Position numbers and translations under genes: made by a program. The notes below the pieces were generated by a model that was not told the DNA's origin, searched no databases, and saw only the letters and a list, made by a program, of their open reading frames with translations. Below are positions 43,950 to 64,000 of a stretch of DNA of 64,000 nt, piece by piece. How positions within the stretch are numbered: the first letter of the stretch is position 1; each line of letters begins with the position of its first letter. Source of the DNA: Clostridia bacterium (GTDB taxonomy: Bacteria > Bacillota > Clostridia > Christensenellales > CAG-1252); the NCBI GenBank assembly GCA_017394805.1, contig JAFPXC010000028.1, positions 7,917 to 71,916 of the forward strand, given 5' to 3'.

Positions 43950-44019
43950 AATCTTCTCCTTAGATTATCGCAATCAAGTCTATATCACGCCCGAAGGCGG
44001 TTATATTCGAAGTAATCAT

Positions 44020-44045
44020 CCCCGCCCGCCCGAAAACGGGCGGGG
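44020..44045 (-). promoter_or_regulatory. GC-rich stem-loop between giant genes A and B
   Basis: CCCCGCCCG-8 nt-CGGGCGGGG (perfect 9-bp stem) lies 10 nt after the stop of A. On the transcribed strand AUGAUUACUU follows, with no clean U-tract. A TGaTATAGA extended -10-like element (43979-43987) lies between it and the B RBS. Confidence 0.5.
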
Positions 44046-44054
44046 AATGAAGTC

Positions 44055-47000: not shown

Positions 47001-50000
47001 GCGCACGTTGATATAGAGAGGATTGCCCTCGCGATCCACGGCTTGATAGCCGCCCAACGCGTTGCCGACCTTGACGCGCACGCGAACGATGCCGTCCGTG
47101 CCGCGATAGTCGTAGGCAAAGTCGTCGTACAAGGCCACTTTGAGCTTGGAGGAAACGCGGCTGTCCCCCAAGAAGGCGTCCAATGTGAGATACTCGCCCG
47201 CGAATCGCAAGACGCGCTCGCCGTCCTCGTTGACCACGGTCAAAGGCGACGTGTAGGGGTACACCGTGACCGTCTTGTCACCGATGGCGGTGACGGCGGC
47301 GTCGTCCACCGGCATCATGACGTCAACCCATTGATAGCCGCTGCGGACGTTGCCCACGCGGACGGTCGCCTCGATATACTCGGTGGCGTAGCTGACGTTC
47401 TGCGTCTTGACGCGGAAGTTGGACGCGTCCACGGGGAACAGCACGTTGTTGCCGCCGAAGTCCACGTTGACGTAGGCGGGCATGAGACCGCTGTCCACGT
47501 AGGGATTGTACTTGAACTCGACGTCGGGCTTGCTCATAGCCACGTGTCCCGTCTCTTCGGCGACCATGCGCTTGACGATGACGTTGACGGTCATGGTCTG
47601 GTAGCCGCCCTGCGCGTTGCCGACGAGGACGCTGGCCTTGGCGGCGGAACCCGTGTAGTGGTAGTTGATATTGGCGTACGTCCACAAAACGGACAACGTG
47701 CCCGTGGTGCCGTCGCGGTACTCTACGCCCACCGTGCCCGCGGGTTGCGGCGTGGCGCCGTTCTCACCGCTGTAGGGCGTGATGGTCTGGGTGAACTGAC
47801 CGTCCACGCGGTAGGTCTCGGTGACGTTGACGATGGTGCGATCCGCCACGTGGAGGAGCATATCCACGTCTTGGTAGCCGCCTATACGGTTGCCCACCTT
47901 GACGGTGAGGACGTAGTAGCCGCCCTGATAGAAGAAGGCGTTGGTGTTGAGGCACTCCTGCCGTCCGTACACGATGGACGTGGGATCGTCGATCATCTCT
48001 TGGGTCACCTTGACGGCGTTGTTGATATTGCTGACCACGGACAATTCGCCCGAATAGTTCTCGAACAAGACGTTGATGGTGGTGGGCAAGGGAGAATCCA
48101 CGTAGGGATCGACCTCGAACTCGTCCTTCTCGACGGCCTTGATCTTGCGCTCCTCCATCTCGACGAACACGCTGACGTAGTAGAAGCCGATGACTTCGTC
48201 GCCCACGTAGACGTCCGTGATGTATTGAGTGACGCCCGCCGTATCGTAGTTGTAGTTGATCTGCGCCTTGGTCCAGTCGACGCTCATCACGTACTGGCGT
48301 GCGTTGCACCAACAGGTACAACCGCCCTCGCCCGTGCACATACCTTCGGCCCGGCAAGCGGGATTGTCGCAGCCGCACACGTCGGAAGTGATGTAGAAGC
48401 CGTCCTTATCCTTGGCTCTGCCGATGGTAACGGTGAGTTTCTCGGGCAAGACGATGCTGTAGGGATCGACCGTGATGATGTCGATGAGGTCGTATTTGAG
48501 GTCGGAAGCGCGGACGTTCCAATCGGCCAAAGCCGTCTCCGCACCCTCGGCCGCGACCATACGCTTGCCGTACTCCACGACTTCGAGATAGGTGTTGAGC
48601 GCACCGAAGCCGTCGATGAGCGCGTTGAGGTAGGAAACGGCGTCCTCGCGCAAGGACTCGGACGCGGGCGTCAAGGCAAGCGACGTGAGACTGTCGCGCA
48701 AAGCGGTGAGACGCTCGGTCTCGGCACTCTTGCGCGAATCGTAACTGACCTCGCGGGAAATATCGTACACCTGCACCTCGAAGGTCTGCACGCCGTACTC
48801 GGCGTTGCCGATGGAAACCCAAGCCTTATCTTCGCCCTTCTCCCACGAAACGACCTGCGACACGACGCTATCGGCGCCGTTGACGTTGTTGCCGAAGTAG
48901 AAGTAGAGGACGTTGGGATAGCTGGTGGCGTCGAAGTCGTCGTCCACGATGTAGTAGAGGCGCTCGTTGTGCGTCTCGTCCTCGTAGGACTTGTAGATGA
49001 CGGGACGGTCGGCGCCGTCCTTGGCCACGGTGCGATCCAAGACGATGACCTTGAACTCCATATCCACGTAGCCCACGCGAGCGGTACCCATAGACATAAT
49101 GGCGCCCGTGGTGGTGCCGTCACCTTCCTCGGAATAGAAGGTCTTGCCGTGGTAGTCGGCACCCGTGATGGCGCTGAGATCCCACGAAACGGTGAGGTTG
49201 CGGGTGGTGTCGTCCTCGGCGAAGTGCGCCACGACGACCTTGGGCAGGTCGTAGCGGACGTACTTGGTCTCTTTGACGCCCGAAACCGTCCTGGAGGACA
49301 CGCAGACGAGCTGCGCCGAGCGGTCGAGAGGATTGATTTCGTAGTAGCAATCCTCGCGGAAGAAGACGTCGCCCGTATCGTCGGTGTAGGTGAAGTCGCG
49401 GACTTTCATCTGTCCGCCCTCCAAAACGGCGATGACGTCGTTGCCGATGAAGACGCGGTCGATGGTCTTCTCGAGGACGTTGACCGAAACGTTGTAGATC
49501 TGGTAGCCACCCAAGGCGTTGCCGATGCGGGCGTCGATGGAAGCGCCCGAATTGTCGACCTGACGTCCCAAGACGTAGAGGTCGTATTGCTTGTTGGTCC
49601 ACTCTACGCTCATAACGCCCGTGGTGCCGTCCTTGAACTTGACCTTGACGGTGGCCGTGAGGTTGGTGGCGCTGTAGGGATCGATGGTGACCGACGAAGG
49701 ATCGAGACTATCGACCTCGCGGTTCAACACGCGAACGCCTACGGGGTACTCTTGATAACCGACCATATCGTTGCCGACGTAGGCGGTGACCACGTACTGC
49801 TTGTACCAATGCTCGACGACGTCGCCCGCCATCGTGCGGCTCTTGTAGCCCACGTAGTCGTTGATGACGTTGTTGATGTCCCAGCTGACCCTGACCGTGC
49901 CCGAAGTCTCGTTGGTGTAGACCACCTCTACCTCGGTGGGATAGGAAGCGACCAAGCGAGGATCAGTGTCGAGGAAGCGGCTGTCGATGCCGTACGGGTC

Positions 50001-53000
50001 GAAGGACAGGACCTCGTCCGCATTGAGACGGAAGCTGTCGATCTCGCGGTTAAGAACGGTGACGGGTACGCGGTACTCCTGATAGCCGCCCAACGCGTTG
50101 CCAATATGGGCGTAGACGTTGCACGAGCCTCCCTTGTAGTTCCAGATACTACGGAGTTCGGTGAGATCCCAAGTGACGTTGCGGAAGGTGTAGGTGGTGA
50201 GATCCTCGAAGCGAACGCCCAACTCGGTGGGATAGTTGGCCTCGTCCAACGCGTCTACCGAGCCGTAGGGATCGAAGGTGTAGGAAGACACGTCGAAGAC
50301 GCTCATGATCACCTTGCGCTCCACCGTGACGGGGAAGCTGACGTATTGGTAGCCCGCGACCGCGTTGCCTATCTTGGCGACCGCGTTGTACACCGCGTTG
50401 GTGCCCTCGGCCTCGTTGCCCTTGTAGGAGGCGTTGATGGCCGACAAATCCCATTGAATGGGATAATAGTTGGCGGCGGCGTGGGCGAAGATGACCTTGC
50501 TACGCACCGAAGCGTCGCTACGAAGCAACGCGGCCAAATTCATGCCGTTGGCGGGATAGAGGGCTTCGTTCAACGCGTAATCCGTGTAGAGATAGGGGTT
50601 GAAGACGTAGTCCTGTCTAACGCCCGACAGGTTGATGGAGTCGATGGTGCGGTCGATGACGTTGATGGGTACCGCGATGGTCTGGTAGCCGCCCGCCGTC
50701 GAACCAATGGTGAGTTGCGCCTGATACAAGCCGCCCGAATAGAGGACGGACACGTTGCCCTTGTTCCAGACGACGCCGCCGTCCAAGGCGAAGTTGCCCA
50801 ACGTGACGGACGCCTCGAAGGTGTGCGTGGTGCCGTTCTTGTAGGTGATGGTGACGGTGCGCGGGTAGCAACGCTCGTCCAACGGGTTGGTGGGATCCAC
50901 GATGCGATGGTGATCGACGTCGTAGACGACCAAGGCGGGAACGAACTCGGCCAACAGGTCGTAGTTGCAGGAAGGCGACGTGAGGTCGAACTCCTCGTGA
51001 CCTAAGACGCTGTGCAAGCGAGTGGCCGTCTCGGAATACTCGATATAGTCCACGATATCGTCGCCGTCGTAGCGCGCGTACAACAGATACAAGGGATCGA
51101 TATTGCCCGCCAAGCCCTCGATATAGGGCACGGTCTCGATGGTGGCGTCCATAATGGTGACGGGCACCTCGACCGCCTGACGGCCTGCCGCTTGAATGCG
51201 CTTGACCTCGTCATCGTCGTCCGACGTGACGCGGAAGGTGGCCGCGGTGGTGCCGCCCGAATAGTGGTTGACCACGTTGGCGAGCGCCCACTCGACGCGC
51301 GTCTCCACATAGTCGGTGGTGTCGCTGTACTTGATCCACAACGTGCGCGGATAGAGGTCTACGTTCTTGCTGTCCACGTTGGACGCGCCGTCCGTGACGT
51401 GGTAGGGATCGAAGGTGAGGTCGAGATCGACGTACTCACCCGACGCCGTGCGCAGCTTGAAGTCCTCGACGGTGTGCGAGGTGATCTCTATCTTGATGCC
51501 CTCGTAGAGGTAGTAGCCCACGTCGAGGTTGCCGATGGTGGCGCTGACGTAGTACTTGGCACCCGTGTAGGTGGGTACGATCTGGGCCTCGGTGACGTTC
51601 CAACGAATGTTGTACAAGGCGGGTTGACTGTTGCCGAAGACCGCCCAGACCTTGTTGGGCAACTCGATGGCGTCGTAGGGCCCGAAGACCAAGTTGGCGG
51701 TGGACTCCTCGTAGGTGTCGCCCGAAATGAAGCGCACGCCGTTGAGCTTGTTGGCGTTGACGGTGACGGGTACGTCGACTTGGTAGTTGGCCGTCTTGCC
51801 GTCACCGAAGGTGAGGTGTAAGGTGTAGTTGCCGCCCTGGAAGGAATCGCTGATCTCGGTGGCGTCCCACTTGACCACGGCGTTGCCCGTGCCCTTGGTG
51901 CCGTCGAAACTCTTGACGTAGGTGCCCTCTCCGTTGCCGTCGGTGAAGGTGACTTCGATGCGCGAAGGCAGATTCTTGACGAAGTCCTTGACCTCGTACG
52001 CCTCTAAGCGCAAGGGGAAGGAGAGGTTGGCACCCGAAATGACGGGCGTGCGTACGACGGAGCCGTCCGCATTCTCGCGCTCGGTGTACTTGACCAACCT
52101 GGCGGCGGTGGCGGGCACTTCGACGCGCACGCGGTGGACGTCGTTGAGGACGTAGCCCTCTACGTAGTAGACGCCCTTGGTATCGTCGGTACCGTCGTAA
52201 TACTCGTAGGGAACGATCTGGAAGATGGCGTCCGACCACGAGACCTGAATGTTGCCGCCCGGCGTATTGGCGGTGGCGGTGCTGCCCGCTTTCTCGGGTA
52301 CGTTGTTCCAGCGGTCGATGGTGGCCATCGAAGGCAGATTCTCCATATAGTCGACCACGCCGTCTTTGTTGTGGTCCAGATCGAACACGTCGATGATGGT
52401 GCGGCGATTGTCGTTCTCGTCACCCTTCAGGTTGAAGTGGCTCTCGCCCGTGACGGACGAAGACATCTCGATGCCTTGGTTGGTGATGACCAAGGTCCAG
52501 TACTCACCGATGGTGGACGTGTAGATGCGCAGGATAATCTTGCGGAGCATACTGTACTCGTCGTTGCGGTTCTTCTCGTCGCAGAGGACGATGATGGCCT
52601 CGCAGGTGGTGTCGGGCGTGATGTTGGGCCACGGCATGAACTGCGACAGCAACCCGATAAGGAAGTTGCCGATGGCGTCGCGCAAGCCGGACAGCACGCG
52701 GTCGATGGCGCTGTTGATGAGGCCGTTGAAGAAGGAGTTGTCAACGATATTGAAGTCGAAGTTGCGCACGATCTCGGTGTAGATGGCGTCGTACAACTCG
52801 TAGAGCATAGTGCTGTTGGAAATGTTGTTGACCTTGGCGTTGGTGCCCAACTTCTCATTGAGCAAGTTGACGAGGAGCGTGGGAATCATAGCGCCCAAAC
52901 CGCCGATCAACTTGGGATTGAGTTGAAGCGTGATATTGGAATAGGCCGCGCCGCTGTCCAAAGAAGCGACCACGTTGCCGTCCTGTACCACCCAATCGCC

Positions 53001-56000
53001 GCCGCCCAACGAGGCGGAAATGCCTACGATGGGATGCGCCAAGCCCTCGGCGAGGTCGTCGGTGGTGAACTCGGTCTTGGTGCCGTCGTCAATGGAGATA
53101 TCTTCCTTGGGATCGAGCCCGCCCGAAATGCCTTTCTTGAACCAAGTGTCGAAATCCAAAGGAATGGTGATGGGCGAAGGTATCTTGCTGATATTGATCT
53201 TGTACAACGTGACCGTGTTGCCGTTCTCGTCGTAGGCGGTGCCGTCCTCTTTGAACCAATCGTTGATGAACCCGATGGGCCACGGCAACTTATTGTTGAT
53301 ATTGACCACGTTCTTGATGGCGCGGCCGATGCCCGAATTGCCCGCGAAGCGAATGGCGAAATCCAAAACGAATTGGTCTTGGGCAATGTAGAGGCCGTTG
53401 AGCATATAACGGGCGAAGTTGGGCAGTTTGTTGAGGATGCCGGAGACGTCCAACGAGATGCCGTGTACGAATTGACTCATCTTGCCCACGTTGTCCTTGC
53501 CGTTGGTCTGCTCGGCGCCGATACGCGACAATTTGATGGTGTTGGCGCGTTTCTCGCCCGAATGCAGGACGGCGCCGTCCGCACCCACGTAAGAGGAGTT
53601 GAGATAGAGGCTCAAATCCAAATCCTTGGGATACAAAGCGTCGATGAAGGCGTAGATAAGCGCCGAGGTAACGTTGCCGCTCCAATTGTTGTCGGGACCG
53701 ACCAAACCGCCCAGGTTGACGGCGGAGAAGCCCGCCATCTCGGTGAGCGAGGCGTCGTAGACGTAGTTGCGCAACAAGCCGGCCTGCGAACCCGTGGTGT
53801 TGTAGCCTATCTTGAGCTTGGTGACGGCCAAGGTAAGCGTGCTCTTCTCGGGTACGCCGCCCGTGACCACGCGCTCGCCCGCGGCATTGGTGTGATAGCT
53901 GAGCAGCGTGAGGTCGATGCGGTCGAAGCCGTTGGCCAACTTGATCTCGACGGTGGCCTCGGTCTCGGCGGGCAACTCGAAGTCGATACCCATGATATAG
54001 AGAAGCTTCTGGATCATGGCGGTATTGATGTCCACGCGGACGTCAAGACCACGGACGTTCTTGTCCGCGTTGCGGACGTAGGTGCCCAAGGTGAGGCGGA
54101 GGTTGGCGCCGTCTACGAAGTGGGCGCAATGATGCTCGCCGGGGAGCAAGTTGCCGTCCTCGTCGTAGCAATCGCCGTTCTCCACGCAAAGCGGGTTGTC
54201 GCAACCGCAGTAGGTGTTGATGGAGAAGGGCTTGGAATCCTCTTTCTCACCGAAGAGTTTGTCCTCGACGTATTGGTCGATGAGGTCGTTGATGATGACG
54301 CTGAGGTCAGACGTGCCCAAGAGGGACGCGAATATCTCCGCGCCGACTTTCAACGCACCGTCGGTGACGTCCAGATTGGCCATGGTCATCATGATATTGG
54401 TGAGGTTGAGGCCCTTGACCTGCGTCTTCATCAAGCCGAAGTTGGACAGATCCAGATAGAAGCTGTTGGTCTTGCCCCAATAGTACAAGCCGAGGAAGAG
54501 CAAGGGATTGTCGTGCGACAGTTCGGAGTTGTCGCGGTAGTAATCCAGCACGAAGCGGATCTCGGTGTTGTCCCAATTGGAGAAGTCCACGTTGGCGTCC
54601 AACGAGAACTCGTACGTCCACACGTCGTTGGCGCGCAACGCCACGTTGACGTTGTCACGGTCGAACTCCATCATGCCCGCGACGACCTTCTCCAACGCCT
54701 CGACGACGGGGTTGACCGCGCCCGCGGAGGGAGAGGTGATGTCCAAGCTGAGGCTACCGCCTAAGCTCAACGTGAAGGCGTTGAGTTGGAGGAAGTTGGG
54801 GTACTTGGACAAGTCGCCGAAGTCGGAGAGGTTGACGAAGGTGCGGCCGCGATATTGATTGGACGCGTTGGGGTTGGGCATTTCGAGATAGGTAGGAAGT
54901 TTCTTCTCCACTTCGTGTTCGCTCTCGATGACCTTGTAGGTGGCGCTGTACGTCGTCTTGGGCAAGGGGTTGCGGCTGTCGCCCAAGTGGAGAGACAGAT
55001 TGCCGACCTCGATTTGAATGCCGAACCAATCGTAATTGGTGGTGCCCAACTGCACGCCGAAGGGTTGATCGTCGTGCTTGTCGAAGTACAAGCCCAAGTA
55101 CAAAGACAGGCTATCCAAGAGTTTGCCGTCTTTGAGCACCGTGTAGTTGGTGTCGGGATCGTTCTCGCCCATGGAGAAGTAGACTTCCATACGGTCGAGG
55201 CCGAGCAACTCCTCTACCTTGTCGAGAATGTCGGACGCGACGCCCAAATCGGCCAACTCAAGCGCGTCGACATAGTCGAGCAAGAGATAGACCAAGGTGA
55301 AGTTGAGGGCAAGTCCCAGACGGCTGTCGCCCAAGGAAATGGCCAAAGACGCGTTGGTGTACGCGTCGGCTACGCCGGTGAGCTTGGTGATATAGGACTT
55401 GACCGAATCGATGTTGAGGCCGAGATCGGTGAGAATGCTCATCAGGCGGCCGTAGGTGGACTCGCTGTCGCCGGCGCCGGCGGTATCGTTCCAATCAATG
55501 CCGACCATGGTGGACAGCAAGGTGGACAAATCCACACTGTCGACCATAATGCCGTTGATATCCAAAGCGGGAACGGTGACGTACAGGCTTTCGTTCTTGT
55601 TGGTGTAGTAAATACCCACCAAGAGGAAGTCGTTGGCGTTGCCGAATCTGTCCTTGAACTCCTTGACGATCTCCAAACGAACCTCGGTGGCCTTGCTGTC
55701 CGAGAGATTGAGCGCCATGCCGACGTCGATGCGCACGCACGCGTCGATCCAATTGGGATCGCGCTCGGCGGAATCCAAGATGACGTCCAGATTGTCGCCC
55801 TTGCTGCTGTCGAGGTAGAGAATGTCGACGAGCATATCGGTAAGGTCGAGGACCTTGCCACCCGCGACGCCCGTGTCCACGCCGCCGTTGACGCGGAGAT
55901 ACAAGGACGCTTCGAAGGTGAGTTGGGCGTCGGTAACGTCGCGCCAATTGCGATAGGACTCGGCCTCGTCCGGACGGATATCCTGCGACAAGACCACGGT

Positions 56001-59000
56001 GGCGGGCAGATTGGTGACTGCGGCACCCGCGTGCTTGACGTAGATGGTGGAGGACGCCGTGACTTCGGTGAGATGGTCGGCCAAAGGCTTGGTGGCCGCG
56101 TCGTCAAGGAAGAGGTCGTAGTGACGGTAGACCTTCTCGGCATAGACCTGCCACTTGGCCTGCAACTCCTCGGCGGTATCGTTGAGGTAGTCGCGCGAAA
56201 GCATGGCGTCGTAGGCGAAGGCCTTGATGTCGTACAGTTTGAGCTCGGTGAGGAAGGTGCCCGTGTGACCGTTGTCGTCGGTGGACACGTTCTCGATATG
56301 CAATACGACCGAGCTGTCCGAAATGTCGCGCAGCATATTGATCTCCACGTAGGCGTTGAGCCCCTCGGAGAAGGTGGTCTTGACCGCCATCAGCGCGAAG
56401 AGGTTGTTGAGGAAGTTGGGATTGAGAAGCAGGAAAATCTTGTCGTTGCCGATAGAGACGCCGTCGAACAAATTCTCAACCATACGTACGTAGTACAGTA
56501 TCTTCTCGACCGTGGTCTGCTCCTCTTCTTCTTCCTCTTGCTGGAAGCACTTGCAATCGCAACCCTCGGGGCAGAGATAGGTGCCCGTGGCCTCGTCGAA
56601 GCAACTGCCGTGCTCCATACAGGCGGGATGCGTGCAACCGCAGGACAACGCGCAGTGCGAGCAATGACAGGTGGGATCGTCCGCGCAAATGACGTTGCCG
56701 TCCGCGTCTATACAGCCGTTGTTGGCGTAGCAACGCTCGTCGTTGCAACCGCACTCGAGCACGGCGCACGAACAGCCGCAGGTAACGCCGTCGCAACGAC
56801 GGATGCCGCGGATATTGTAGCAACTGCCGTTGCGGACGCACGCGGCGTCGCGGCAACCGCAGGGCAACATACAATGCGAGCAGGTGCAACCCGCCGAGCA
56901 GAGTTTGTTGTCGTTGTGCGTGCAACCGCCGTTGGCCAAGCATTGCGGGCAGGTACAGCCGCAATCCAACCCCGTCTCGTTGTAAGATACGTTGCCGTTG
57001 CTGCTGGCGTACTCCAAGTCGCGGATGAAGCCCGTGACAAAGTCTTTGAGTATCGTGACAAAGTCGAAGTGGATATAGAACGGCGCGACGCCAAGGAGGG
57101 ACAAGTCGAGATAGAGACGCGCGTCCTCGGTGGAGCCTGCGCCGTCGAAGTAGATGACGATGGGTTTGGTGATGGCTTGGACGGTGCCGCCGACGCGTTG
57201 ACCGAAGCCCGTGACATAGATCTTGAACAAGAACTCGGACAAATCATAGTTGGCCGTGTTGAGTTTCATGGAGAAGTCAACGGTGATGGTGGTATCCGTC
57301 TTGGTGGTCATCAAGATAAGCATCTTGATGTGGTCGGCAAGCTCGTGGAGATTGCTCCACTCGGCCGAAATCTCCTCTTCGGTGGTGGGTGCGGCGAACT
57401 TACCGAGCAGGTCGGTGTTCATCGTATCGTAGTTGAGGACCAAATCCAACGCCGCGTGGAAGGTGATTTCGTTGGTGCTCCACTCGGTGTACTCGGACAA
57501 ATCCATACCCAAAACCGCGTCGGTGAAGCCCAAGTGCGTGTAACTGTACTCCTCGGCCATGTGGTAGGGGCCGCCCGTGCCGTAGACTTGGCGACCGTTG
57601 ATGACGGTGTACTCGCCGCCGTCGTCCTCGGTGCGGTACTTCTTGGGCAGGCTCAAGCCCAGCTCGATGGTGTGGAGCCTGAGGTCGAAGCCCACGAATT
57701 GCTTGTTGACGCCCGCTTCGGTAAGCTCGGCGCCGTAGAGGACTTCGCCCTCGGCGACGGACAAGGTGACCGACGTGAGAGAGGCGAAGGACGTGAGCGC
57801 GGCGTGCTCGACGTACATCAACTCGCCTTGGTAGCCCAAGCGCTCGGTGACGAGGTCGCTACCCACCTGCATGGTAATGGTGGGATAGTACGCCATAAGA
57901 TCCAACGCGCCCGAGACGCCCAACCCGTCGAAGGTGACGGTCGCCGCCCCTGCCTTGATGGACTGGAATACGTAGCGGTTGAAATAGAGACGGTTGCCCT
58001 CGACGCGATAGGCAAAAGTGCCGTCGCCCTCGGTGAGGGTGAGCGTGCGCGTCGTGACCGCGTAGGACACGGGCATCTTGCCGTCGGCGTAGATGAGGCT
58101 ACGCATCGTGTCGGTGGGTACCGCGTAGTTGGCTGCGCCCGCGGCCAACGTGACGTTGGCGGTGTAGGCGGTGCCGTCTGCGTAATTGGCGGCGATGGTC
58201 CAAACGCCCGCGGGCAGATTGGCCACGGCGTTGTCGGTGAGGGAGACCGCCGTATCCGTAACTTTGACGGTGGCGAAGTTGACGGCGTTCTTGTACAGAG
58301 CGTTGCCGTCCTTGTTTACGTCGTCGGCGGGCGTGTACTCGGACGTCTTGCCGAACGAGAGGGACAACGCGCCGTCCAAGAGGTCGATATCCACGTCCAG
58401 ATAGTCGATATCCACGGACAACTCGAAATCGGTGAGCATACCGACGGCCTTGCCGATGAAGTCGGAGGCAAGCTGAATGCCCAACTTACCTTGGCCGAAG
58501 GTGACGGCCTGCATCATGCCCAAAACACCCGCTACCGAGAAGCCCGTACCCGCCTCGGCGGTGGCGTTGGCGATAGAGGTGGGCGTGTTGGCGGCGTAGG
58601 CCGCGACGCGGTCGGGTGCCAAGCCCCAATACTCCAAGGAGCGCTCGACGGGAATGAACATAGTGGGCACGGCGAAGTTGGGGAAGATGAAGGGGTTGAC
58701 GTTGAAGTAGACCCTGTCTCCGTCGTAGTAGATGGTGAGCACCTCGGCCCAATCGCCCGCGGCGCCGATGACTTGGTCGCCGATGGTGGTGTTGTACACG
58801 AAACGCTTGATCTTGAGATAGACCTGCACGTCGGACAAGGCGAAGTTGGCAAAGTCCAAGGTCTTGAGGTTGACGCGGACTTCGGCTTGGTACTTGCCGT
58901 TCATCTCGTAGGCGGAAAGGCCCAAGTTGACGAACAGACTGCCGAGATAGGCAGAGAGGTTGTCGCCCAAGCCCAAGACCGAGCCGCCCACATTGTAGAC

Positions 59001-62000
59001 GCTGTCCAAATTGGCGATATCGTTGTCGCTGACGTTGAGGTCAAGGTCCAGAGTAAGCGCCAAATAGAGACTGTTGAGGTCGGACAAGACGTCAAGGTAG
59101 GCGCCGTCGTCTATGCGGGTGACGCCCGTGGTGTCGTCCAAGACCTTGGAAGGCTTGGTGGTGACGACGCCCGTCGTCTCGTCCACGACTACGGTGTCGG
59201 AGACCTTGTCGAGCATATTGAACGCCGACCAATCCTCGCCCTCTTTGAGCAAGGAAATGCTGTAATTGTTGAGTTTGATGCCCAAATCCAAATTGCTGAG
59301 GTCGAGGTCGAGACCGGCGGACAGGAACACGCCCTTGTAGAAGTAGCCCTCGGTGAGGACGGTAGTACCCTCGTACAAGGTGAAGGCATACTTGTCGGTG
59401 TCGATATCGGCCACGGCACCCTTGACCAAGAAGGTGAGGACGTTGCCGTCGATGCGGACGTATTCGTTGAGGTCGGAGGAAGAGACGGTGATCTCGTTGC
59501 CCGTGCGTGCGGCGCGCAAGACCAATTTGTCCGCCGCGGCAAGAGAAGCGCCGGCGGTGAAGGACAAGTTGCCGTTGACCTGTTTCAATCCGTAGGTGAA
59601 GGCCTCGTTGACCGCGTTCTCGTAGGTGGGACGATTGATCTCGACCAGCGAAGTCTGCAACTCGACGTGCGCCTCGGCGCCGCCTACGTTGTAGAAGCCG
59701 AAGTTGAGACCGAGCAACTCGTCCAAGACCATGAGGAAGTCGCCGCCCATGGTGACGCCCGCGTAGTCCTTGGTGAGACGGATGCTGTTGATGATGGACG
59801 TGACGCTGCCCACGATATTCTCGGCACCCGAGAAGTTGAGGTAGAACTTGCCGCCGACCTTGGTGACGATGGCAAGACTGCCGCCCGAAGTGGTGAGAGT
59901 GACCGTGTAGTACACGCCGCCCGCATCCTCGTTGAGCGCGCGCACGCGTTCATTATTAAGAAGCATGATGGACGTGACGCCGTCGGCGGTGGTAATGTCG
60001 AAGTACTCGCCCCACGCCTCGGCGTCGTTGAGGACGATGCGCGTGGGCACGCTACCCGCTTCGCCCCATACGTTCATATTCTCGATGACGATGGATTGAA
60101 TGGCTCTGCCCTTGAGGTCCACCTTGAACGGCATATTGGGCTTGGCCTCGGAAGGCTCGAGATAGAAGTTCATTCTGCCCGAAGTGACGCTCTGCGGCTT
60201 GGGATTGGACGCGCTCGTAGACAGCTCGGCCGCCTGTTGATTGTCGGCGGCGGAAGCGATACGACCGTCGCCCACCAAGGACAAGACGTCCACCTTGACC
60301 GAAGGCGTGGCCGCGAAGATACCGAAGTCAACGTAGAGCCAACCGTCCTCTAAGTAGGCGGACACGATCAACTCGTCGTAGGTGGTGCCGGCGACCGTGG
60401 TCTTCTTGACGATTTCGACGAGCAACTTGCTACGCTTGATGACGTTGGAAATATTGACGTTGGCAATGCCGTTCTCGAAGATGGAGGCAAGGCTGACGTT
60501 GGCCATAAGGTTGAGCTCGAAGACGTCGTTGGTCTCGGCGGTGAGCAACTTGAAGTCCACGTTTTCGCCGACTATCGTGCTGATGATGCCCGACAGATCC
60601 CAAGAACCGTCCTGAATGGCCTTGATGTCCAACTCACCCGCGAGAGAAATGGCGATATTATCCTCGAACGTGAGCCGCTTGAAGTAGGGCAAAGCCGCGG
60701 CGACTTCGTCGTCCAAGGTGATGATTTCCTTGGACAGTTTGACGCCGACGTTGCCGATATTGATGCGAATGAAGGGACCTTGTTGGGTAACGGCGGAACC
60801 GTCGTCCAAGCCTGCCTGCAAGCTGACGCCCAAGCCGTCGAAGGCACTCATACGAATGCCGACCGAAAGGACGCTGACGCCCTTCATCGCGTCGAGATCC
60901 AAGGTGAAGCCGAGGCTGTTGATGACGGCGGCGACCAACGAGGCGTTGACGTAGACCTCGAAGCCTTTTTCGTGCGACAAGCGCACGGTGTCGATAGCGC
61001 CCAGAATCGCCTTGATGGTATAGCCCGAATCCGAGAACAACTTCTTGGAATCCTCGGCGGCGGCGCAAGACTTATCCGTGCAATAGGGGCACGAATCGTA
61101 GCAACTGCCGCGCTTGACGCAGGTGGGATCGTAGCAACCGCAACGCAAAGCGTTGGCCTTGTTGCCCTCGGGACGGTGGCAGGCGGCGCTGTCCGTGCAA
61201 TAGGGACAGCCGTACACGCAACTGCCGCGCGCTATGCAGGCCTTTTGCTCGCAACCGCAGGGAAGTACGGTAACGACGGGCGCATCACCGCCGGGGGCGG
61301 GCGCTACCTCGTCGTGACAATGGCAAGCGCATTCGGCGCCGCAAAGCAAACGACCGTCGCGGTCGCGGCAAGTGACCAAGTTGCCCTCGCCGTCCACGTA
61401 GGTACCGGCGGCTACGCATTGGTCGCAAGAGCAACCGCACACCAAGCGAGCGCAAGAGCAACCGCAATCCTCGCCGTCGCAAATGCGCGTGCCGTCGGCG
61501 GCGTAGCAACTGCCGTTGGCATTGCACAATACGTTGCCGCAACCGCAAGGCAAAGTCTCCTTGCTGAAGAGACTGTTGAGGTCAAGGCCGACGTACTTGA
61601 TTTGATGGATATTCATAACGGGCAAATCCACGTAGACGGTGGGGCCTTCGGCGGCCAAGCCGTCGTAGTAGATATAGCCCAAACGGCGCTGTACCGTGCC
61701 GTTGGTGGCACCGCCTTCGGTGACGGTGAGGAAGACCTGCGACGTGTTGATATTGTCGAGGTCTACGCTGCCCTTGACGTCCAAAGTGAACACCATATCG
61801 GGCTTGAAGGAGACCGTGTCCATGCCGAAGACCGCATCCAGGGAGGGAAGAATGGCCCGCAAGATCTCGGTGAGGTCGAGGTGATAGGGATAGCTCTCCT
61901 GCTGTACGCCCTCGACGACGAAGGTGCCTGCGGACTCCACGATCTCCACGCTGACGCTGAAGGTGATGCGCTTGAAGCCGGACAGCGATTGATAGTCGGA

Positions 62001-64000
62001 GGTGTCGGCGTAGACGGGATCTACCTCGGGTGTGGCGGGATCGTCCACAATCTCTTTGCGGGTGGCGGTGTCTACGGCCAAGAAGTCGATGGCGTGCTTG
62101 CCCGTCTTGAGATTGAGGTTGTTGAGGGTGAGGTCGATGGTGTTACGATTGGTGGGATCGTTCCAATCGTCGCCCTTGTTGTAGTAGAAGATGGCTACCT
62201 TGAGCCCAAGGTTCTGCACGAATGCGGCAGGTACGAGCTCGTGGTTTTCGTTCAACTTGAAGAAGTCGAACTGAATGTCGATGCCGCCGCCCGGCGTGTT
62301 CTCCTCGAGAATGTCCTCGCCGACGATAAGTTCGAAGAGGTTGCGAATGAGCAACTTGTTGGTGACGACGTGAATGCCGCGACGCGAGAAGGTGAACTCG
62401 TCCACGATATCCGTGATAAGCGCGGCGTAGTGGGTACGGCAACTGCCGTCGCATTGCTCGCAATCCTGGGTGCAGATATGCTCGTGCACGTGCGCGGGAT
62501 CGGTGCAACCGCAAACGAGGTGTCCGATCGTACAACGGCAGGACTTCGCACCGCAGAGGAACTCCGCGTGGTCGGCGCCGCCCTCGCCCTCGCAATAGCA
62601 GACGTAGTCGATCACGTTGCCGTAGGCGTCCTTGACGACCTCTTTGACGCAAGTGCCGTGATCTACGCACTCGGGGTTGGTGCAACCGCAAGCCAAGGCC
62701 TTGTGGCAGGCGCAACACTCGGTATCCCTGCCGCGGCAATACATACCGTCGGGACCGCAAGCGGTGATATAGTCACCCGTGGCAACGGCGTATTCCAAGC
62801 AATAGGGATCGGTGCAACCGCAAGCCAAACACACGCAATCGCACCCGGCGTCCTCGCACAACTTGACCCAAGTGGTGCCGATCCGCCTCCAGCAACTGCC
62901 GTTGGCGACGCAAGCGGGATGGGTGCATCCGCAAGCCAGCTCGACGGGCTCGGCGGGCGTCTCTTCGGTGGGCGTTTCCTCTTCCTGCGGCTTGTTGAGC
63001 CCCGCGATGATGCCGCCCAGACTGCCCAACTTGAGGTTGAGCGCCGTCTTGATATTGTACAAGCCGATCATGGGCGCGTCGATATAGATGGCGTTGTCCG
63101 CGCCGACGTAGTACGCGCGCAAGAACAGGACGCGCATCGCTTCGTCGTCGGCCATGCCCTCGATGTACTTGCCGTATTCGGTCATATACACCTTGACCAT
63201 CAAATCGCTCTCGCCCAACTCTTTGAGGTTGATATTGGCGGCCAATTCGATTTCCAAACTGACCTTCATACCGTTCTCGATCTCCAACTTGATGGTGTCG
63301 TTGACGAGGTATTTGAGGGCTTCGGACAGGTTGAGTTCGCCGTCCTTGAAGTCCACGTTGAGGCTGAGGCTACCGCCGAAATAGAGGTATTCGAGTATGA
63401 GTTCCTCACCTTTGGGCATACCGAAGTCGAGAAGCGTGGTGTACTCGGTGACCGTCTGCGTGCGCTCGGGACGAATGTCGCTGTCGCCCAACTTGACCGA
63501 GTCGATGGATAAGTCGATATGCACGTAGCCCGTATGTTGGGCAACCACCAAGCCGCCGTCCAACTCCTCGGCGAACAATTCCATATTGACGCGCACGAAG
63601 CGGTTGGAAAGGCTGACGCCCACGAAGCTGGGATACTCGGGCTCGTCGCGCAAGGTGAAGGGAAGCTCGATGTCGAACTTGGCGAGGAACGCGTCCAAAA
63701 CCTTGGGCAGTAAGTCTTTGTTGAGTACGATATAGAGGCCTTGTTGTTGGAAGGTGCCCGTGGTGTAGGAACCGTCCGCCCACAAGACGTAGTCGATGAT
63801 GGAGCCGGCGAGCTTGGTGTACTTGGTCCAAGCGGCACTCTCCGCGTCGGCGGCCATGGCGGCCTCGGCGTCGGTGCCGAAGACGGAATCCACCAAGGTC
63901 TGGAGATTGACGCCCGTGATGAGCAACTTGTCAATCTCGAGCCAAGGCAGGTCGACGTACAATTCGCCGCGCAGAACGTCCGCGTAGATGCCCGCGAAGA
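44055..64000 (-). CDS. giant protein A (>6,640 aa, N-terminus beyond window): novel two-block supermodules with Cys-knot insertions, junction region, about 16-18 Ig-like repeats, Ig/MBG-like C-terminus
   Basis: The frame is open from 44058 to the window edge. The track start at 63962 is an internal TTG, and upstream codons read …FAGIYADVLRGE with no stop. G/C-ending codon bias matches the neighbours. There is no C-terminal TM or anchor (ends …SASCERQVVVA*). Confidence 0.85.
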   Translation of the reverse strand, partial: FAGIYADVLRGELYVDLPWLEIDKLLITGVNLQTLVDSVFGTDAEAAMAADAESAAWTKYTKLAGSIIDYVLWADGSYTTGTFQQQGLYIVLNKDLLPKVLDAFLAKFDIELPFTLRDEPEYPSFVGVSLSNRFVRVNMELFAEELDGGLVVAQHTGYVHIDLSIDSVKLGDSDIRPERTQTVTEYTTLLDFGMPKGEELILEYLYFGGSLSLNVDFKDGELNLSEALKYLVNDTIKLEIENGMKVSLEIELAANINLKELGESDLMVKVYMTEYGKYIEGMADDEAMRVLFLRAYYVGADNAIYIDAPMIGLYNIKTALNLKLGSLGGIIAGLNKPQEEETPTEETPAEPVELACGCTHPACVANGSCWRRIGTTWVKLCEDAGCDCVCLACGCTDPYCLEYAVATGDYITACGPDGMYCRGRDTECCACHKALACGCTNPECVDHGTCVKEVVKDAYGNVIDYVCYCEGEGGADHAEFLCGAKSCRCTIGHLVCGCTDPAHVHEHICTQDCEQCDGSCRTHYAALITDIVDEFTFSRRGIHVVTNKLLIRNLFELIVGEDILEENTPGGGIDIQFDFFKLNENHELVPAAFVQNLGLKVAIFYYNKGDDWNDPTNRNTIDLTLNNLNLKTGKHAIDFLAVDTATRKEIVDDPATPEVDPVYADTSDYQSLSGFKRITFSVSVEIVESAGTFVVEGVQQESYPYHLDLTEILRAILPSLDAVFGMDTVSFKPDMVFTLDVKGSVDLDNINTSQVFLTVTEGGATNGTVQRRLGYIYYDGLAAEGPTVYVDLPVMNIHQIKYVGLDLNSLFSKETLPCGCGNVLCNANGSCYAADGTRICDGEDCGCSCARLVCGCSCDQCVAAGTYVDGEGNLVTCRDRDGRLLCGAECACHCHDEVAPAPGGDAPVVTVLPCGCEQKACIARGSCVYGCPYCTDSAACHRPEGNKANALRCGCYDPTCVKRGSCYDSCPYCTDKSCAAAEDSKKLFSDSGYTIKAILGAIDTVRLSHEKGFEVYVNASLVAAVINSLGFTLDLDAMKGVSVLSVGIRMSAFDGLGVSLQAGLDDGSAVTQQGPFIRINIGNVGVKLSKEIITLDDEVAAALPYFKRLTFEDNIAISLAGELDIKAIQDGSWDLSGIISTIVGENVDFKLLTAETNDVFELNLMANVSLASIFENGIANVNISNVIKRSKLLVEIVKKTTVAGTTYDELIVSAYLEDGWLYVDFGIFAATPSVKVDVLSLVGDGRIASAADNQQAAELSTSASNPKPQSVTSGRMNFYLEPSEAKPNMPFKVDLKGRAIQSIVIENMNVWGEAGSVPTRIVLNDAEAWGEYFDITTADGVTSIMLLNNERVRALNEDAGGVYYTVTLTTSGGSLAIVTKVGGKFYLNFSGAENIVGSVTSIINSIRLTKDYAGVTMGGDFLMVLDELLGLNFGFYNVGGAEAHVELQTSLVEINRPTYENAVNEAFTYGLKQVNGNLSFTAGASLAAADKLVLRAARTGNEITVSSSDLNEYVRIDGNVLTFLVKGAVADIDTDKYAFTLYEGTTVLTEGYFYKGVFLSAGLDLDLSNLDLGIKLNNYSISLLKEGEDWSAFNMLDKVSDTVVVDETTGVVTTKPSKVLDDTTGVTRIDDGAYLDVLSDLNSLYLALTLDLDLNVSDNDIANLDSVYNVGGSVLGLGDNLSAYLGSLFVNLGLSAYEMNGKYQAEVRVNLKTLDFANFALSDVQVYLKIKRFVYNTTIGDQVIGAAGDWAEVLTIYYDGDRVYFNVNPFIFPNFAVPTMFIPVERSLEYWGLAPDRVAAYAANTPTSIANATAEAGTGFSVAGVLGMMQAVTFGQGKLGIQLASDFIGKAVGMLTDFELSVDIDYLDVDIDLLDGALSLSFGKTSEYTPADDVNKDGNALYKNAVNFATVKVTDTAVSLTDNAVANLPAGVWTIAANYADGTAYTANVTLAAGAANYAVPTDTMRSLIYADGKMPVSYAVTTRTLTLTEGDGTFAYRVEGNRLYFNRYVFQSIKAGAATVTFDGLGVSGALDLMAYYPTITMQVGSDLVTERLGYQGELMYVEHAALTSFASLTSVTLSVAEGEVLYGAELTEAGVNKQFVGFDLRLHTIELGLSLPKKYRTEDDGGEYTVINGRQVYGTGGPYHMAEEYSYTHLGFTDAVLGMDLSEYTEWSTNEITFHAALDLVLNYDTMNTDLLGKFAAPTTEEEISAEWSNLHELADHIKMLILMTTKTDTTITVDFSMKLNTANYDLSEFLFKIYVTGFGQRVGGTVQAITKPIVIYFDGAGSTEDARLYLDLSLLGVAPFYIHFDFVTILKDFVTGFIRDLEYASSNGNVSYNETGLDCGCTCPQCLANGGCTHNDNKLCSAGCTCSHCMLPCGCRDAACVRNGSCYNIRGIRRCDGVTCGCSCAVLECGCNDERCYANNGCIDADGNVICADDPTCHCSHCALSCGCTHPACMEHGSCFDEATGTYLCPEGCDCKCFQQEEEEEEQTTVEKILYYVRMVENLFDGVSIGNDKIFLLLNPNFLNNLFALMAVKTTFSEGLNAYVEINMLRDISDSSVVLHIENVSTDDNGHTGTFLTELKLYDIKAFAYDAMLSRDYLNDTAEELQAKWQVYAEKVYRHYDLFLDDAATKPLADHLTEVTASSTIYVKHAGAAVTNLPATVVLSQDIRPDEAESYRNWRDVTDAQLTFEASLYLRVNGGVDTGVAGGKVLDLTDMLVDILYLDSSKGDNLDVILDSAERDPNWIDACVRIDVGMALNLSDSKATEVRLEIVKEFKDRFGNANDFLLVGIYYTNKNESLYVTVPALDINGIMVDSVDLSTLLSTMVGIDWNDTAGAGDSESTYGRLMSILTDLGLNIDSVKSYITKLTGVADAYTNASLAISLGDSRLGLALNFTLVYLLLDYVDALELADLGVASDILDKVEELLGLDRMEVYFSMGENDPDTNYTVLKDGKLLDSLSLYLGLYFDKHDDQPFGVQLGTTNYDWFGIQIEVGNLSLHLGDSRNPLPKTTYSATYKVIESEHEVEKKLPTYLEMPNPNASNQYRGRTFVNLSDFGDLSKYPNFLQLNAFTLSLGGSLSLDITSPSAGAVNPVVEALEKVVAGMMEFDRDNVNVALRANDVWTYEFSLDANVDFSNWDNTEIRFVLDYYRDNSELSHDNPLLFLGLYYWGKTNSFYLDLSNFGLMKTQVKGLNLTNIMMTMANLDVTDGALKVGAEIFASLLGTSDLSVIINDLIDQYVEDKLFGEKEDSKPFSINTYCGCDNPLCVENGDCYDEDGNLLPGEHHCAHFVDGANLRLTLGTYVRNADKNVRGLDVRVDINTAMIQKLLYIMGIDFELPAETEATVEIKLANGFDRIDLTLLSYHTNAAGERVVTGGVPEKSTLTLAVTKLKIGYNTTGSQAGLLRNYVYDASLTEMAGFSAVNLGGLVGPDNNWSGNVTSALIYAFIDALYPKDLDLSLYLNSSYVGADGAVLHSGEKRANTIKLSRIGAEQTNGKDNVGKMSQFVHGISLDVSGILNKLPNFARYMLNGLYIAQDQFVLDFAIRFAGNSGIGRAIKNVVNINNKLPWPIGFINDWFKEDGTAYDENGNTVTLYKINISKIPSPITIPLDFDTWFKKGISGGLDPKEDISIDDGTKTEFTTDDLAEGLAHPIVGISASLGGGDWVVQDGNVVASLDSGAAYSNITLQLNPKLIGGLGAMIPTLLVNLLNEKLGTNAKVNNISNSTMLYELYDAIYTEIVRNFDFNIVDNSFFNGLINSAIDRVLSGLRDAIGNFLIGLLSQFMPWPNITPDTTCEAIIVLCDEKNRNDEYSMLRKIILRIYTSTIGEYWTLVITNQGIEMSSSVTGESHFNLKGDENDNRRTIIDVFDLDHNKDGVVDYMENLPSMATIDRWNNVPEKAGSTATANTPGGNIQVSWSDAIFQIVPYEYYDGTDDTKGVYYVEGYVLNDVHRVRVEVPATAARLVKYTERENADGSVVRTPVISGANLSFPLRLEAYEVKDFVKNLPSRIEVTFTDGNGEGTYVKSFDGTKGTGNAVVKWDATEISDSFQGGNYTLHLTFGDGKTANYQVDVPVTVNANKLNGVRFISGDTYEESTANLVFGPYDAIELPNKVWAVFGNSQPALYNIRWNVTEAQIVPTYTGAKYYVSATIGNLDVGYYLYEGIKIEITSHTVEDFKLRTASGEYVDLDLTFDPYHVTDGASNVDSKNVDLYPRTLWIKYSDTTDYVETRVEWALANVVNHYSGGTTAATFRVTSDDDDEVKRIQAAGRQAVEVPVTIMDATIETVPYIEGLAGNIDPLYLLYARYDGDDIVDYIEYSETATRLHSVLGHEEFDLTSPSCNYDLLAEFVPALVVYDVDHHRIVDPTNPLDERCYPRTVTITYKNGTTHTFEASVTLGNFALDGGVVWNKGNVSVLYSGGLYQAQLTIGSTAGGYQTIAVPINVIDRTIDSINLSGVRQDYVFNPYLYTDYALNEALYPANGMNLAALLRSDASVRSKVIFAHAAANYYPIQWDLSAINASYKGNEAEGTNAVYNAVAKIGNAVAGYQYVSFPVTVERKVIMSVFDVSSYTFDPYGSVDALDEANYPTELGVRFEDLTTYTFRNVTWDLTELRSIWNYKGGSCNVYAHIGNALGGYQEYRVPVTVLNREIDSFRLNADEVLSFDPYGIDSRFLDTDPRLVASYPTEVEVVYTNETSGTVRVSWDINNVINDYVGYKSRTMAGDVVEHWYKQYVVTAYVGNDMVGYQEYPVGVRVLNREVDSLDPSSVTIDPYSATNLTATVKVKFKDGTTGVMSVEWTNKQYDLYVLGRQVDNSGASIDARIGNALGGYQIYNVSVNVLEKTIDRVFIGNDVIAVLEGGQMKVRDFTYTDDTGDVFFREDCYYEINPLDRSAQLVCVSSRTVSGVKETKYVRYDLPKVVVAHFAEDDTTRNLTVSWDLSAITGADYHGKTFYSEEGDGTTTGAIMSMGTARVGYVDMEFKVIVLDRTVAKDGADRPVIYKSYEDETHNERLYYIVDDDFDATSYPNVLYFYFGNNVNGADSVVSQVVSWEKGEDKAWVSIGNAEYGVQTFEVQVYDISREVSYDSRKSAETERLTALRDSLTSLALTPASESLREDAVSYLNALIDGFGALNTYLEVVEYGKRMVAAEGAETALADWNVRASDLKYDLIDIITVDPYSIVLPEKLTVTIGRAKDKDGFYITSDVCGCDNPACRAEGMCTGEGGCTCWCNARQYVMSVDWTKAQINYNYDTAGVTQYITDVYVGDEVIGFYYVSVFVEMEERKIKAVEKDEFEVDPYVDSPLPTTINVLFENYSGELSVVSNINNAVKVTQEMIDDPTSIVYGRQECLNTNAFFYQGGYYVLTVKVGNRIGGYQDVDMLLHVADRTIVNVTETYRVDGQFTQTITPYSGENGATPQPAGTVGVEYRDGTTGTLSVLWTYANINYHYTGSAAKASVLVGNAQGGYQTMTVNVIVKRMVAEETGHVAMSKPDVEFKYNPYVDSGLMPAYVNVDFGGNNVLFPVDASNFRVKTQNVSYATEYIEATVRVGNVRSGYQWVDVMMPVDDAAVTAIGDKTVTVYPYTSPLTVVNEDGERVLRFAGEYLTLDAFLGDSRVSSKLKVALYDDFAYDYRGTDGIVRVRVKVGNALGGYQAVDREGNPLYINVRVMEEIFSDVDVKSLFTAKVNAGFISPYDVPEMVGSTVDARLGDATTSVTVKAIAFEDALGAKGDLAVIGYNERNVCYVKLQVGTEWGGYQWVYVMDGESRLVLNFADVTVDMTDAAFRAQFATRVDPYTYRLPTTVTVDGVDYRVTFVDAVTGAAVTDADITYSGGDFAMLARIGTALGGYQDYYYTMRVYQKVIVSADLGTIAVNQFNRTFTLPSGSVTVNFMDGTTASFDVAPYVATILAEGNTYAFAETALGSAVTGGWDLSNVDLALTGGTYYGVLYVGNALGGYQAVSVRFKVATKVLDATAPVRYVVSEDASGVTLATLHDVTAGVGEYFTLPTDLWLTMQDGTTLRVNATWHKMSYVASGETVTVEGWTPDDVYAAYKRGVTDFRLYCGVYGQELSIRLTLSALRVVKGDDFAAYYSVRRGSAVGLPTTITQSVYVLTEDGTQSVVSTTFDIVWNVLPRLNITDKYVLSASVDGDGVKWTRTIPVYVYNSYVYTFENFVDEDGNATDGTVSVKVGDDVVADILPAVKVSVLYGTMTYDEIINPSWVLVRSVSSNGVVTEYDQNVAYNNFNIRALEKDARYVFRALTIDKNGDLLVYRDTQADLLVTVVVTDKTDLSEKIDFVGVKTLTLLDGTEAECATGVYGSTKGYVPYVLVDSDVEVYRVTYLNKATGKRYVKTLDGGVMIGDAEPSEAGEYTLTVSLRYVGAVEGADVSIDYVIEKKDIRDLILISRTNRIYREEGGIAQPAAVEAAVSGHLADVRIEYKPVGADDAAYTTDAPSAVGKYTVRVTVVSANYTGVKMDTLTIAKAVNLVFHPVGGAAVSTSVGQDSYVTDSTITGYPMITEDRISVWYYVDGEGVTRVFSVYERVSASLIEGNSRVDIYEARAAIAVDATTGIASVTFVYAGEEVDLFDSYEIDYLVGTTSYAVYRNGSYITQPAGFDVNDPALKPGTYTIKVTVFSVNASASCERQVVVA

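Follow-up and report, generated by a model that had tools for sequence, protein, structure and literature searches.

The window analysed here is a stretch of 64,000 nucleotides from a Clostridia bacterium (GenBank assembly GCA_017394805.1, contig JAFPXC010000028.1, positions 7,917 to 71,916 of the forward strand). On its minus strand lies a giant open reading frame (ORF), designated ORF A, in which a cysteine-rich unit of about 36 amino acids (aa) is repeated 14 times, distributed over five sites. The unit is a new, lineage-restricted and previously unannotated family within the known class of small Cys-rich stabilised modules. Comparison of the sequences suggests, with a probability of about 0.5, that the units are stabilised by metal, probably zinc, at about two sites per unit.

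The repeated unit and its five sites

ORF A and the positions of the units are given below. The N-terminus of ORF A lies beyond the window, the frame still being open at base 64000.

44055..64000, minus strand: giant ORF A (listed ORF 44055-63962, 6635 aa; frame open to base 64000)
62439..62933, minus strand: array 1, aa 344-508; 4 units, 31 Cys, 9 His
62427..62513, minus strand: unit 4 of array 1, CGCTDPAHVHEHIC...CDGSCRTHY; His at the position of the third Cys (C3)
61065..61547, minus strand: array 2, aa 806-966; 4 units, 31 Cys
56547..56963, minus strand: array 3, aa 2334-2472; 4 canonical units, 33 Cys; followed by an acidic EEEEEE linker
54126..54209, minus strand: single unit of site 4, aa 3252-3279; CGCDNPLCVENGDC..GEHHCAH; 5 Cys, 3 His
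48306..48377, minus strand: single unit of site 5, aa 5196-5219; CGCDNPACRAEGMCTGEGGCTCWC

These five ranges had been reported in a first-pass annotation of the same DNA. All of them translate as quoted there, the 11 quoted instances and the C-x-C runs are present, and the total of 14 units was borne out. For the cluster 62439-62933, 32 Cys had been counted and a recount gives 31. The formula CGC-x3-C-x4-G-x-C proposed for the motif has no match in ORF A, as two spacers are each off by one residue. Units were delimited by cutting the arrays at each C-G-C; 10 of the 14 match CGC-x4-C-x3-G-x-C exactly, 11 match C-x-C-x4-C-x5-C and three are degenerate. The remainder of the protein is Cys-poor, as had been stated: 107 of the 120 Cys of ORF A fall within the five sites and the other ~6100 residues are nearly without Cys.

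The consensus of the unit has eight Cys and reads L-x-C-G-C-x4-C-x3-G-x-C-[YF]-x3-G-x3-C-x3,4-C-x-C-x1,2-C. Besides this canonical form, there are units with a long loop, short units that end in C-x3-C-x2-C-x4,6-C(-H) and units with nine Cys, CGCxCxxC...CxCxxC. In array 2, a canonical unit and a long-loop unit are accompanied by two of the short form; the first of these two (unit 7) terminates in a conserved C-H. The core of the unit was found 10 times in the three arrays, compared with 0.76 occurrences in residue-shuffled arrays, and none of 500 shuffles reached 10. Except for one 61-base, 2.3-copy stretch, the arrays are free of tandem repeats at the DNA level; therefore, the units are old and diverged.

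The structure of the unit was predicted using AlphaFold2 (AF2). A single unit, submitted with a 35-sequence alignment, gave a predicted local distance difference test score (pLDDT) of 78.4; the x4-C-x3 segment was predicted as a short helix, and a hairpin comes after it. The pLDDT of a 4-unit array was 62.7.

The first C-G-C of the units is encoded by TGCGGTTGC in 11 of the 14 units of ORF A (e.g. 62925-62933). The GGT codon for the Gly also predominates in relatives of 35-58% G+C and is oddly fixed for a gene of 59% G+C.

Searches for related sequences

The Cys-rich segments were searched against Pfam (E-values up to 10) and NCBIfam, and no match was obtained, including to EGF, laminin and metallothionein families. 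A profile search of the PDB with the units returned only Notch EGF repeats at non-significant values (E 0.8-1.4); with the array profile nothing was returned. The literature was searched for the unit motif and for giant proteins of Christensenellaceae, and nothing relevant was found. The unit is a genuine repeated mini-domain, not recognised in the first-pass annotation, which the curated libraries (Pfam, NCBIfam, PDB profiles) do not recognise either, and no annotated repeat family matches it.

A profile built from the 14 units matched 9 of 1.84 billion representative proteins. Six of these (P0001-P0005, P0008) are true relatives with the same unit, several of them with an LY.D.P motif (see below) preceding the units. 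The NCBI relatives among them are fragments from metagenome-assembled genomes (MAGs) of Clostridiales or Clostridia bacteria, named 'hypothetical protein'. A cluster member, P0011, is a partial protein of 7552 aa with eight arrays and 194 Cys.

The other three matches (P0006, P0007, P0009) had E = 1.9e-5 to 7.5e-5 over the whole library of 1.84 billion, with 10-15 matching stretches each. Together with P0013, they are LPXTG-anchored proteins of Lachnospiraceae, ~1750 aa long and named 'fibro-slime domain-containing protein' by NCBI. Each of the four carries 9-13 strict 22-aa repeats, H-x-H-x3-C-Y-D-x2-G-x3-C-G, with two His and two Cys per repeat (His2Cys2 repeats). This repeat is not annotated in Pfam, by which only DUF7601 and the anchor are recognised in the host proteins; it looks like an unannotated extracellular zinc-finger-like array.

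In addition, genome and metagenome contigs were scanned with DNA patterns. At least 120 matches were obtained in each scan, those listed being mostly Cys-rich translations of GC-rich tandem DNA. Among the matches listed, the unit profile identified at least three genome-contig loci and at least five metagenome loci as true members of the family. The genome loci are L060 and L101 (Christensenellaceae MAGs) and L109 (a Clostridia MAG from goat rumen); the metagenome loci, all from JGI, are L159, L162, L177, L178 and L182. Three further loci among the matches listed, L164, L209 and L211, have the short-form unit and were assigned by motif only. The number of species carrying the unit is accordingly a lower bound.

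Two other kinds of sequence were seen in these scans. L056, L075 and L037, from MAGs of Planctomycetes/Pirellulales, have repeats in frame, e.g. CCEPSCGCADxCC; they belong to a different family of repeat proteins, extremely rich in Cys, which the DNA pattern caught by chance. L129, L132, L137, L142-L144 and at least ~50 further metagenome loci contain a common 27-base tandem repeat which reads ..GATGCCGC*YC.. in the matched frame. It is present in many contigs of gut and other metagenomes and is the source of most spurious metagenome matches among those listed.

Conservation of the arrays

L109 and L101 are collinear with ORF A, with 35-36% identity over ~2,500 aa, and have arrays at the same three sites. 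In the alignments of ORF A, L109 and L101, Cys was identical in 265 of 276 aligned pairs (96%), compared with 31% for other residues. Gly, aromatic and hairpin residues are conserved as well across these orthologues of 35% identity.

Cys-rich translations of GC-rich tandem DNA are common and account for most of the matches listed in both scans, and it was considered for this reason whether the arrays are artefactual, through low complexity arising by chance, misassembly or a wrong frame. However, the arrays lie inside an uninterrupted ORF of 19.9 kb, the 61-base stretch mentioned above is their sole DNA tandem repeat, and independent MAGs from NCBI and metagenome contigs from JGI, which are from related species, have arrays at the same sites with the frame intact. 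The probability of an artefact is negligible, and this reading was ruled out by the orthologue comparison. Because Cys is 96% identical between orthologues and other residues only 31%, the alignments show the arrays to be real, selected features with strong selection on Cys, not assembly artefacts.

Insertion sites

A module motif, ..YY.G....LY.D.P, was located with a regular expression at aa 1, 292, 776, 1751, 2283, 2793 and 3168 of ORF A.

63945..63962, minus strand: module motif LYVDLP, aa 1-6; then a plain Ala/Glu linker, no Cys
63072..63089, minus strand: module motif IYIDAP, aa 292-297; before array 1
61620..61637, minus strand: module motif VYVDLP, aa 776-781; before array 2
58695..58712, minus strand: module motif VYFNVN, aa 1751-1756; then a Cys-free linker
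57099..57116, minus strand: module motif LYLDLS, aa 2283-2288; before array 3
55569..55586, minus strand: module motif LYVTVP, aa 2793-2798; then a Cys-free linker
54444..54461, minus strand: module motif FYLDLS, aa 3168-3173; before the unit of site 4

Four of the seven motifs (aa 292, 776, 2283, 3168) precede units and the other three precede Cys-free, Ala/Glu-rich linkers. This agrees with the first-pass annotation in that four of the five sites follow the motif; of the four Cys-free supermodules it had counted, three were found (aa 1, 1751, 2793). The unit of site 5 is not preceded by an LY.D.P motif and is kept at the equivalent place in L182.

The number of units at site 1 is 4 in ORF A, at least 7 in L109 and 8 in P0001/L162. 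At site 2, 4 units are present in ORF A, L109 and L101, and 2 in L162 and L182. Site 4 has one unit in ORF A and P0008 and an acidic linker in L182. With unit numbers differing among orthologues, and a unit exchanged for a linker at site 4, the loop after LY.D.P holds as a variable insertion site across the sequences compared, in keeping with the 'insertion hot spot' proposed earlier.

The third unit of array 3 holds an extra Cys-rich insert of 40-50 aa in P0002 (aa 402-483), P0004 (aa 318-386) and L182 (aa 1448-1516). It reads C-x2-C-T-S-[KR]-x-C-Q..G-x-C...C-D-Y and is missing from ORF A, L109 and L101. It is a nested insertion inside an inserted array.

Extracellular location and mobility

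The orthologue on contig Ga0310786_10000028 has a signal peptide at its start and then a Cys (L178 begins MTKNLHTKILLILLLCFAVALVAFAC). L178 and L162, which are on the same JGI contig, were joined into one ORF through P0011. The first residue of ORF A within the window maps ~3,850 residues downstream of the orthologue start, and the full-length protein is therefore expected to have ~10,500 aa and, judged from the orthologues, to begin with a signal peptide.

L164 combines a signal peptide, three units and an LAKTG sortase-type anchor; a weak FIVAR match (22.5 bits) was under the Pfam cut-off of 29.2. In L211, units are followed by CarboxypepD_reg domains and a membrane anchor. The units of L164 and L211 are of the short form; they were picked by motif and are under the threshold of the unit profile. 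Because the orthologue has a signal peptide and the unit is present in the sortase-type wall protein L164, the unit is, by these sequence features, an extracellular module. Its occurrence in unrelated wall-anchored proteins as well, there as the short form below the profile threshold, shows at the level of domain architecture that it behaves as a mobile module.

Metal or disulfide stabilisation

His is the most enriched non-Cys residue in the arrays (4.9-fold; pooled odds ratio 5.06, Fisher p = 1e-26), and this applies to all 8 proteins tested; Gly, the next most enriched, reaches 1.7-fold. In unit 4 of array 1, His occupies C3 in all three orthologues (CGCTDPAHVHEHIC in ORF A, CHCVNPNHVEDYSC and CGCINPEHIDDYNC), and both this His and the terminal His of the unit are kept in L109 and L101. 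Several units also have a conserved His after their last Cys (C-x-C-H, SCxxH[YW], C-H). Where orthologues differ at Cys columns, Cys is most often exchanged for His (5 of 22; e.g. CKCAHC versus CECNHH), and single units without C5 carry GEHHC or THKHC in ORF A, P0008 and the low-GC relative P0003. Among complete arrays, the Cys count was odd in 19 and even in 11, i.e., without an even bias.

Metal was favoured over disulfides because His is enriched 4.9-fold and replaces Cys at C3 in three orthologues, because the Cys counts have no even bias and the unit profile matches the His2Cys2 repeats, and because exported proteins of Firmicutes generally avoid Cys and do not have the even-numbered Cys counts typical of disulfides (PMC2823432). 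The Cys density of ORF A is thus indeed unusual for an exported protein of Firmicutes, in line with the remark of the first-pass annotation on bacterial extracellular proteins. The hosts are gut or rumen anaerobes, in which thiolates would be expected to stay reduced.

In the mechanism proposed, each unit would fold as a short helix and a beta-hairpin, as predicted by AF2. Cys and His that coordinate metal ions would hold the fold, most likely at two tetrahedral Zn2+ sites per unit. Metal-held units would then be rigid beads projecting from, or spacing, the supermodule, and the strictly anaerobic, reducing habitat would keep the thiolates reduced and disfavour disulfides. Beyond structure, the arrays may serve as a spacer or an adhesion surface.

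Several points weigh against metal stabilisation. In the tests of enrichment and parity, sequences that are related were counted as if independent. His was adjacent to Cys 41 times compared with 33.9 in shuffles, a value reached by 138 of 2000 shuffles and hence not significant. Across 95 automatically cut units, whose segmentation was imperfect, no systematic rise of His with falling Cys was detected. The best PDB sequence matches, although non-significant (E ~0.8), are disulfide domains, namely the Notch EGF repeats. The AF2 confidence (62.7 for the array, 78.4 for the unit) is only moderate. Finally, some clostridia have DsbA/VKOR-type enzymes (PMC12453122).

Some of these points favour disulfide-knotted, EGF-like mini-domains, in which three or four disulfides per unit would form after export to give a rigid spacer like the EGF repeats of animal matrix proteins. 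The stretch C-x4-C-x2-NG-x-C-x8-C is similar to the N-terminal half of an EGF repeat, Notch repeats are the only matches in the PDB, the eight Cys of the canonical unit are an even number, the location is extracellular, and DsbA/VKOR homologues are encoded by some clostridia (PMC12453122). However, the EGF matches are non-significant and Pfam gave neither EGF nor laminin up to E 10. The EGF and laminin signatures (C-x-C-x5-G-x2-C, C-x-C-x2-[GP]-[FYW]-x4,8-C) had 1, 0 and 0 matches in the arrays, not above shuffles. Cys counts that are odd more often than even (19 versus 11) argue against full pairing, and EGF-like knots leave no role for the conserved His at a Cys position or for the His enrichment. 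Furthermore, the related 22-aa repeats contain two invariant His alongside just two Cys, and the hosts are strict gut or rumen anaerobes from a phylum whose exported proteins generally have no disulfide signature (PMC2823432). EGF-like knots are therefore considered a doubtful explanation, though the main rival of metal binding.

Metallothionein-like surface metal buffers, binding Zn, Cu(I) or Cd in thiolate clusters for sequestration or storage and not for the fold, are unlikely. The very high Cys density with C-x-C and C-x-C-x-C runs, the variable copy number of units among orthologues and the enrichment of His would all suit such a function. On the other hand, fixed spacing and conserved Gly, aromatic and hairpin residues across orthologues of 35% identity argue for a defined fold. 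Pfam gave no metallothionein match, the arrays occupy fixed loops of a giant structural protein in which single units occur too, and no metal-resistance genes are nearby within the window. The first-pass annotation had left knots and metal clusters side by side; the data lean to structural, zinc-finger-like Cys/His sites, and away from metallothionein-like storage.

Significance of the unit

More than 100 Cys are packed into a few loops of a protein of ~10,500 aa and are 96% conserved between distant orthologues, in a phylum that avoids Cys (PMC2823432). Should the units bind zinc extracellularly, they would correspond, on the outside of the cell, to zinc fingers and be linked to anaerobic life, and would represent a compact modular metal-dependent building block absent from every domain library. 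Structural metal-thiolate chemistry would then take place outside the cell, enabled by a permanently reducing habitat. The unit profile also provides an annotation handle for the very large surface proteins, named 'hypothetical', of gut and rumen bacteria resembling Christensenellaceae, whose giant surface-protein genes are usually broken up over several MAG contigs.

Genomic context

The window is bacterial chromosome with a G+C content of ~59%. A Pfam scan of its ORFs found, among others, SpoIIE, V-ATPase subunit I, TrkH/TrkA and a GH2 enzyme; this gene content points to an organism of the Clostridia type that forms spores. Identical coding for TrkH was found on one ENA metagenome contig (ERZ28019070, 169.6 kb) and on three Logan contigs.

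In ORF A, Big_4 and MBG_3 are the sole Pfam matches, both confined to the C-terminal half. A second giant ORF follows head to tail on the same strand:

24828-43949, minus strand: giant ORF B, 6373 aa, directly downstream of ORF A

At its N-terminus, ORF B carries a signal peptide in which a lipobox-like FVGC occurs, and at its C-terminus a membrane anchor with an acidic tail. Its Cys are few (40) and scattered, the CGC unit motif does not occur in it, and no similarity was detectable between ORF B and the loci of the ORF A family tested. The gap of 105 bases between the stop of ORF A and the start of ORF B contains a G+C-rich hairpin, ccccgcccgttttcgggcgggcgggg, at 43990-44054, with no clear T run, which could be a terminator or attenuator.

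Long antisense ORFs on the plus strand overlap ORF A at 54786-60353 (1855 aa) and 60780-63512 (910 aa). Because homologues back the minus-strand frame, they were regarded as an ordinary side effect of a long gene rich in G+C. Cys-rich peptides that are modified by radical-SAM/SPASM enzymes or crosslinked by thioethers would have the maturase gene beside that of the substrate. Genes for radical-SAM/SPASM proteins or thiol-disulfide oxidoreductases were not found by Pfam among the ORFs of window positions 1-24.8 kb, the region upstream of ORF A being beyond the window.

Comparison with known systems

The CXC/tesmin/pre-SET domains (MSL2, LIN54, SUV39) bind three Zn by nine Cys, of which three are bridging (Zn3Cys9). 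Their published consensus is CX[C/H]X2-13CX4-7CXCX5-60CX2-4CX1-2CX2-15CXN (PMC3447885), and they share with the unit a C-x-C-x(n)-C start, a C-x(2-4)-C-x(1-2)-C end and all-Cys ligands with occasional His (PMC3447885). The units might accordingly be divergent members of this eukaryotic superfamily in a bacterial surface protein, as the start, C-x-C-x4-C, and the end, C-x3,4-C-x-C-x1,2-C, resemble the consensus (PMC3447885). However, the consensus has no match in the three arrays and, without its terminal Asn, 2 matches compared with 1.9 in shuffles. The unit lacks the middle C-x-C and the signature Asn, and matches neither the Pfam TCR and Pre-SET profiles nor the solved CXC chains, so there is no profile or fold match. 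CXC domains bind DNA in eukaryotic nuclei, whereas the unit belongs to a bacterial extracellular protein. Membership in this superfamily is very improbable.

Metallothioneins have a high Cys density and C-x-C motifs in common with the unit. Metallothioneins have few conserved non-Cys residues and a fold set by the metal clusters alone; in the unit, by contrast, spacing is fixed, non-Cys residues are conserved and secondary structure is predicted, and the unit is placed in fixed loops of a structural protein.

An EGF-like domain has three disulfides, which connect Cys 1-3, 2-4 and 5-6. Notch EGF repeats and the unit are both small extracellular Cys-rich beads in tandem, with similar C-x4-C-x2-NG-x-C-x8-C spacing and a central beta-hairpin. 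In contrast to the six Cys of EGF, the unit has eight, with a leading C-G-C and a trailing C-x-C-x-C. A short helix was predicted by AF2 in the unit and is missing in EGF; substitutions by His and odd numbers of Cys are further differences.

The His2Cys2 repeats share with the unit the hairpin C-[YF]-D-x2-G-x3-C and a preceding C-G, and their first His aligns to the third Cys of the unit in the profile alignment. Unit 4 of array 1, CGCTDPAHVHEHIC (AHVHE..C), is almost the same string as a repeat of P0006, CGYETATHVHEESC (THVHE..C), and both kinds of repeat are found in extracellular proteins of gut Clostridia. They differ in that the His2Cys2 repeats have a period of 22 aa, no C-x-C-x-C tail and unrelated host proteins, whereas the unit has ~36 aa and eight Cys. 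Any metal chemistry of the His2Cys2 repeats would itself be putative. They are read as a related kind of repeat and not as the unit's own family. Somewhat less probable than metal binding itself, and proposed tentatively, is a wider grouping: the units and the 22-aa repeats may belong to an undescribed superfamily of extracellular zinc-finger-like beads, which strictly anaerobic gut and rumen Clostridia would use instead of disulfide modules to rigidify giant surface proteins.

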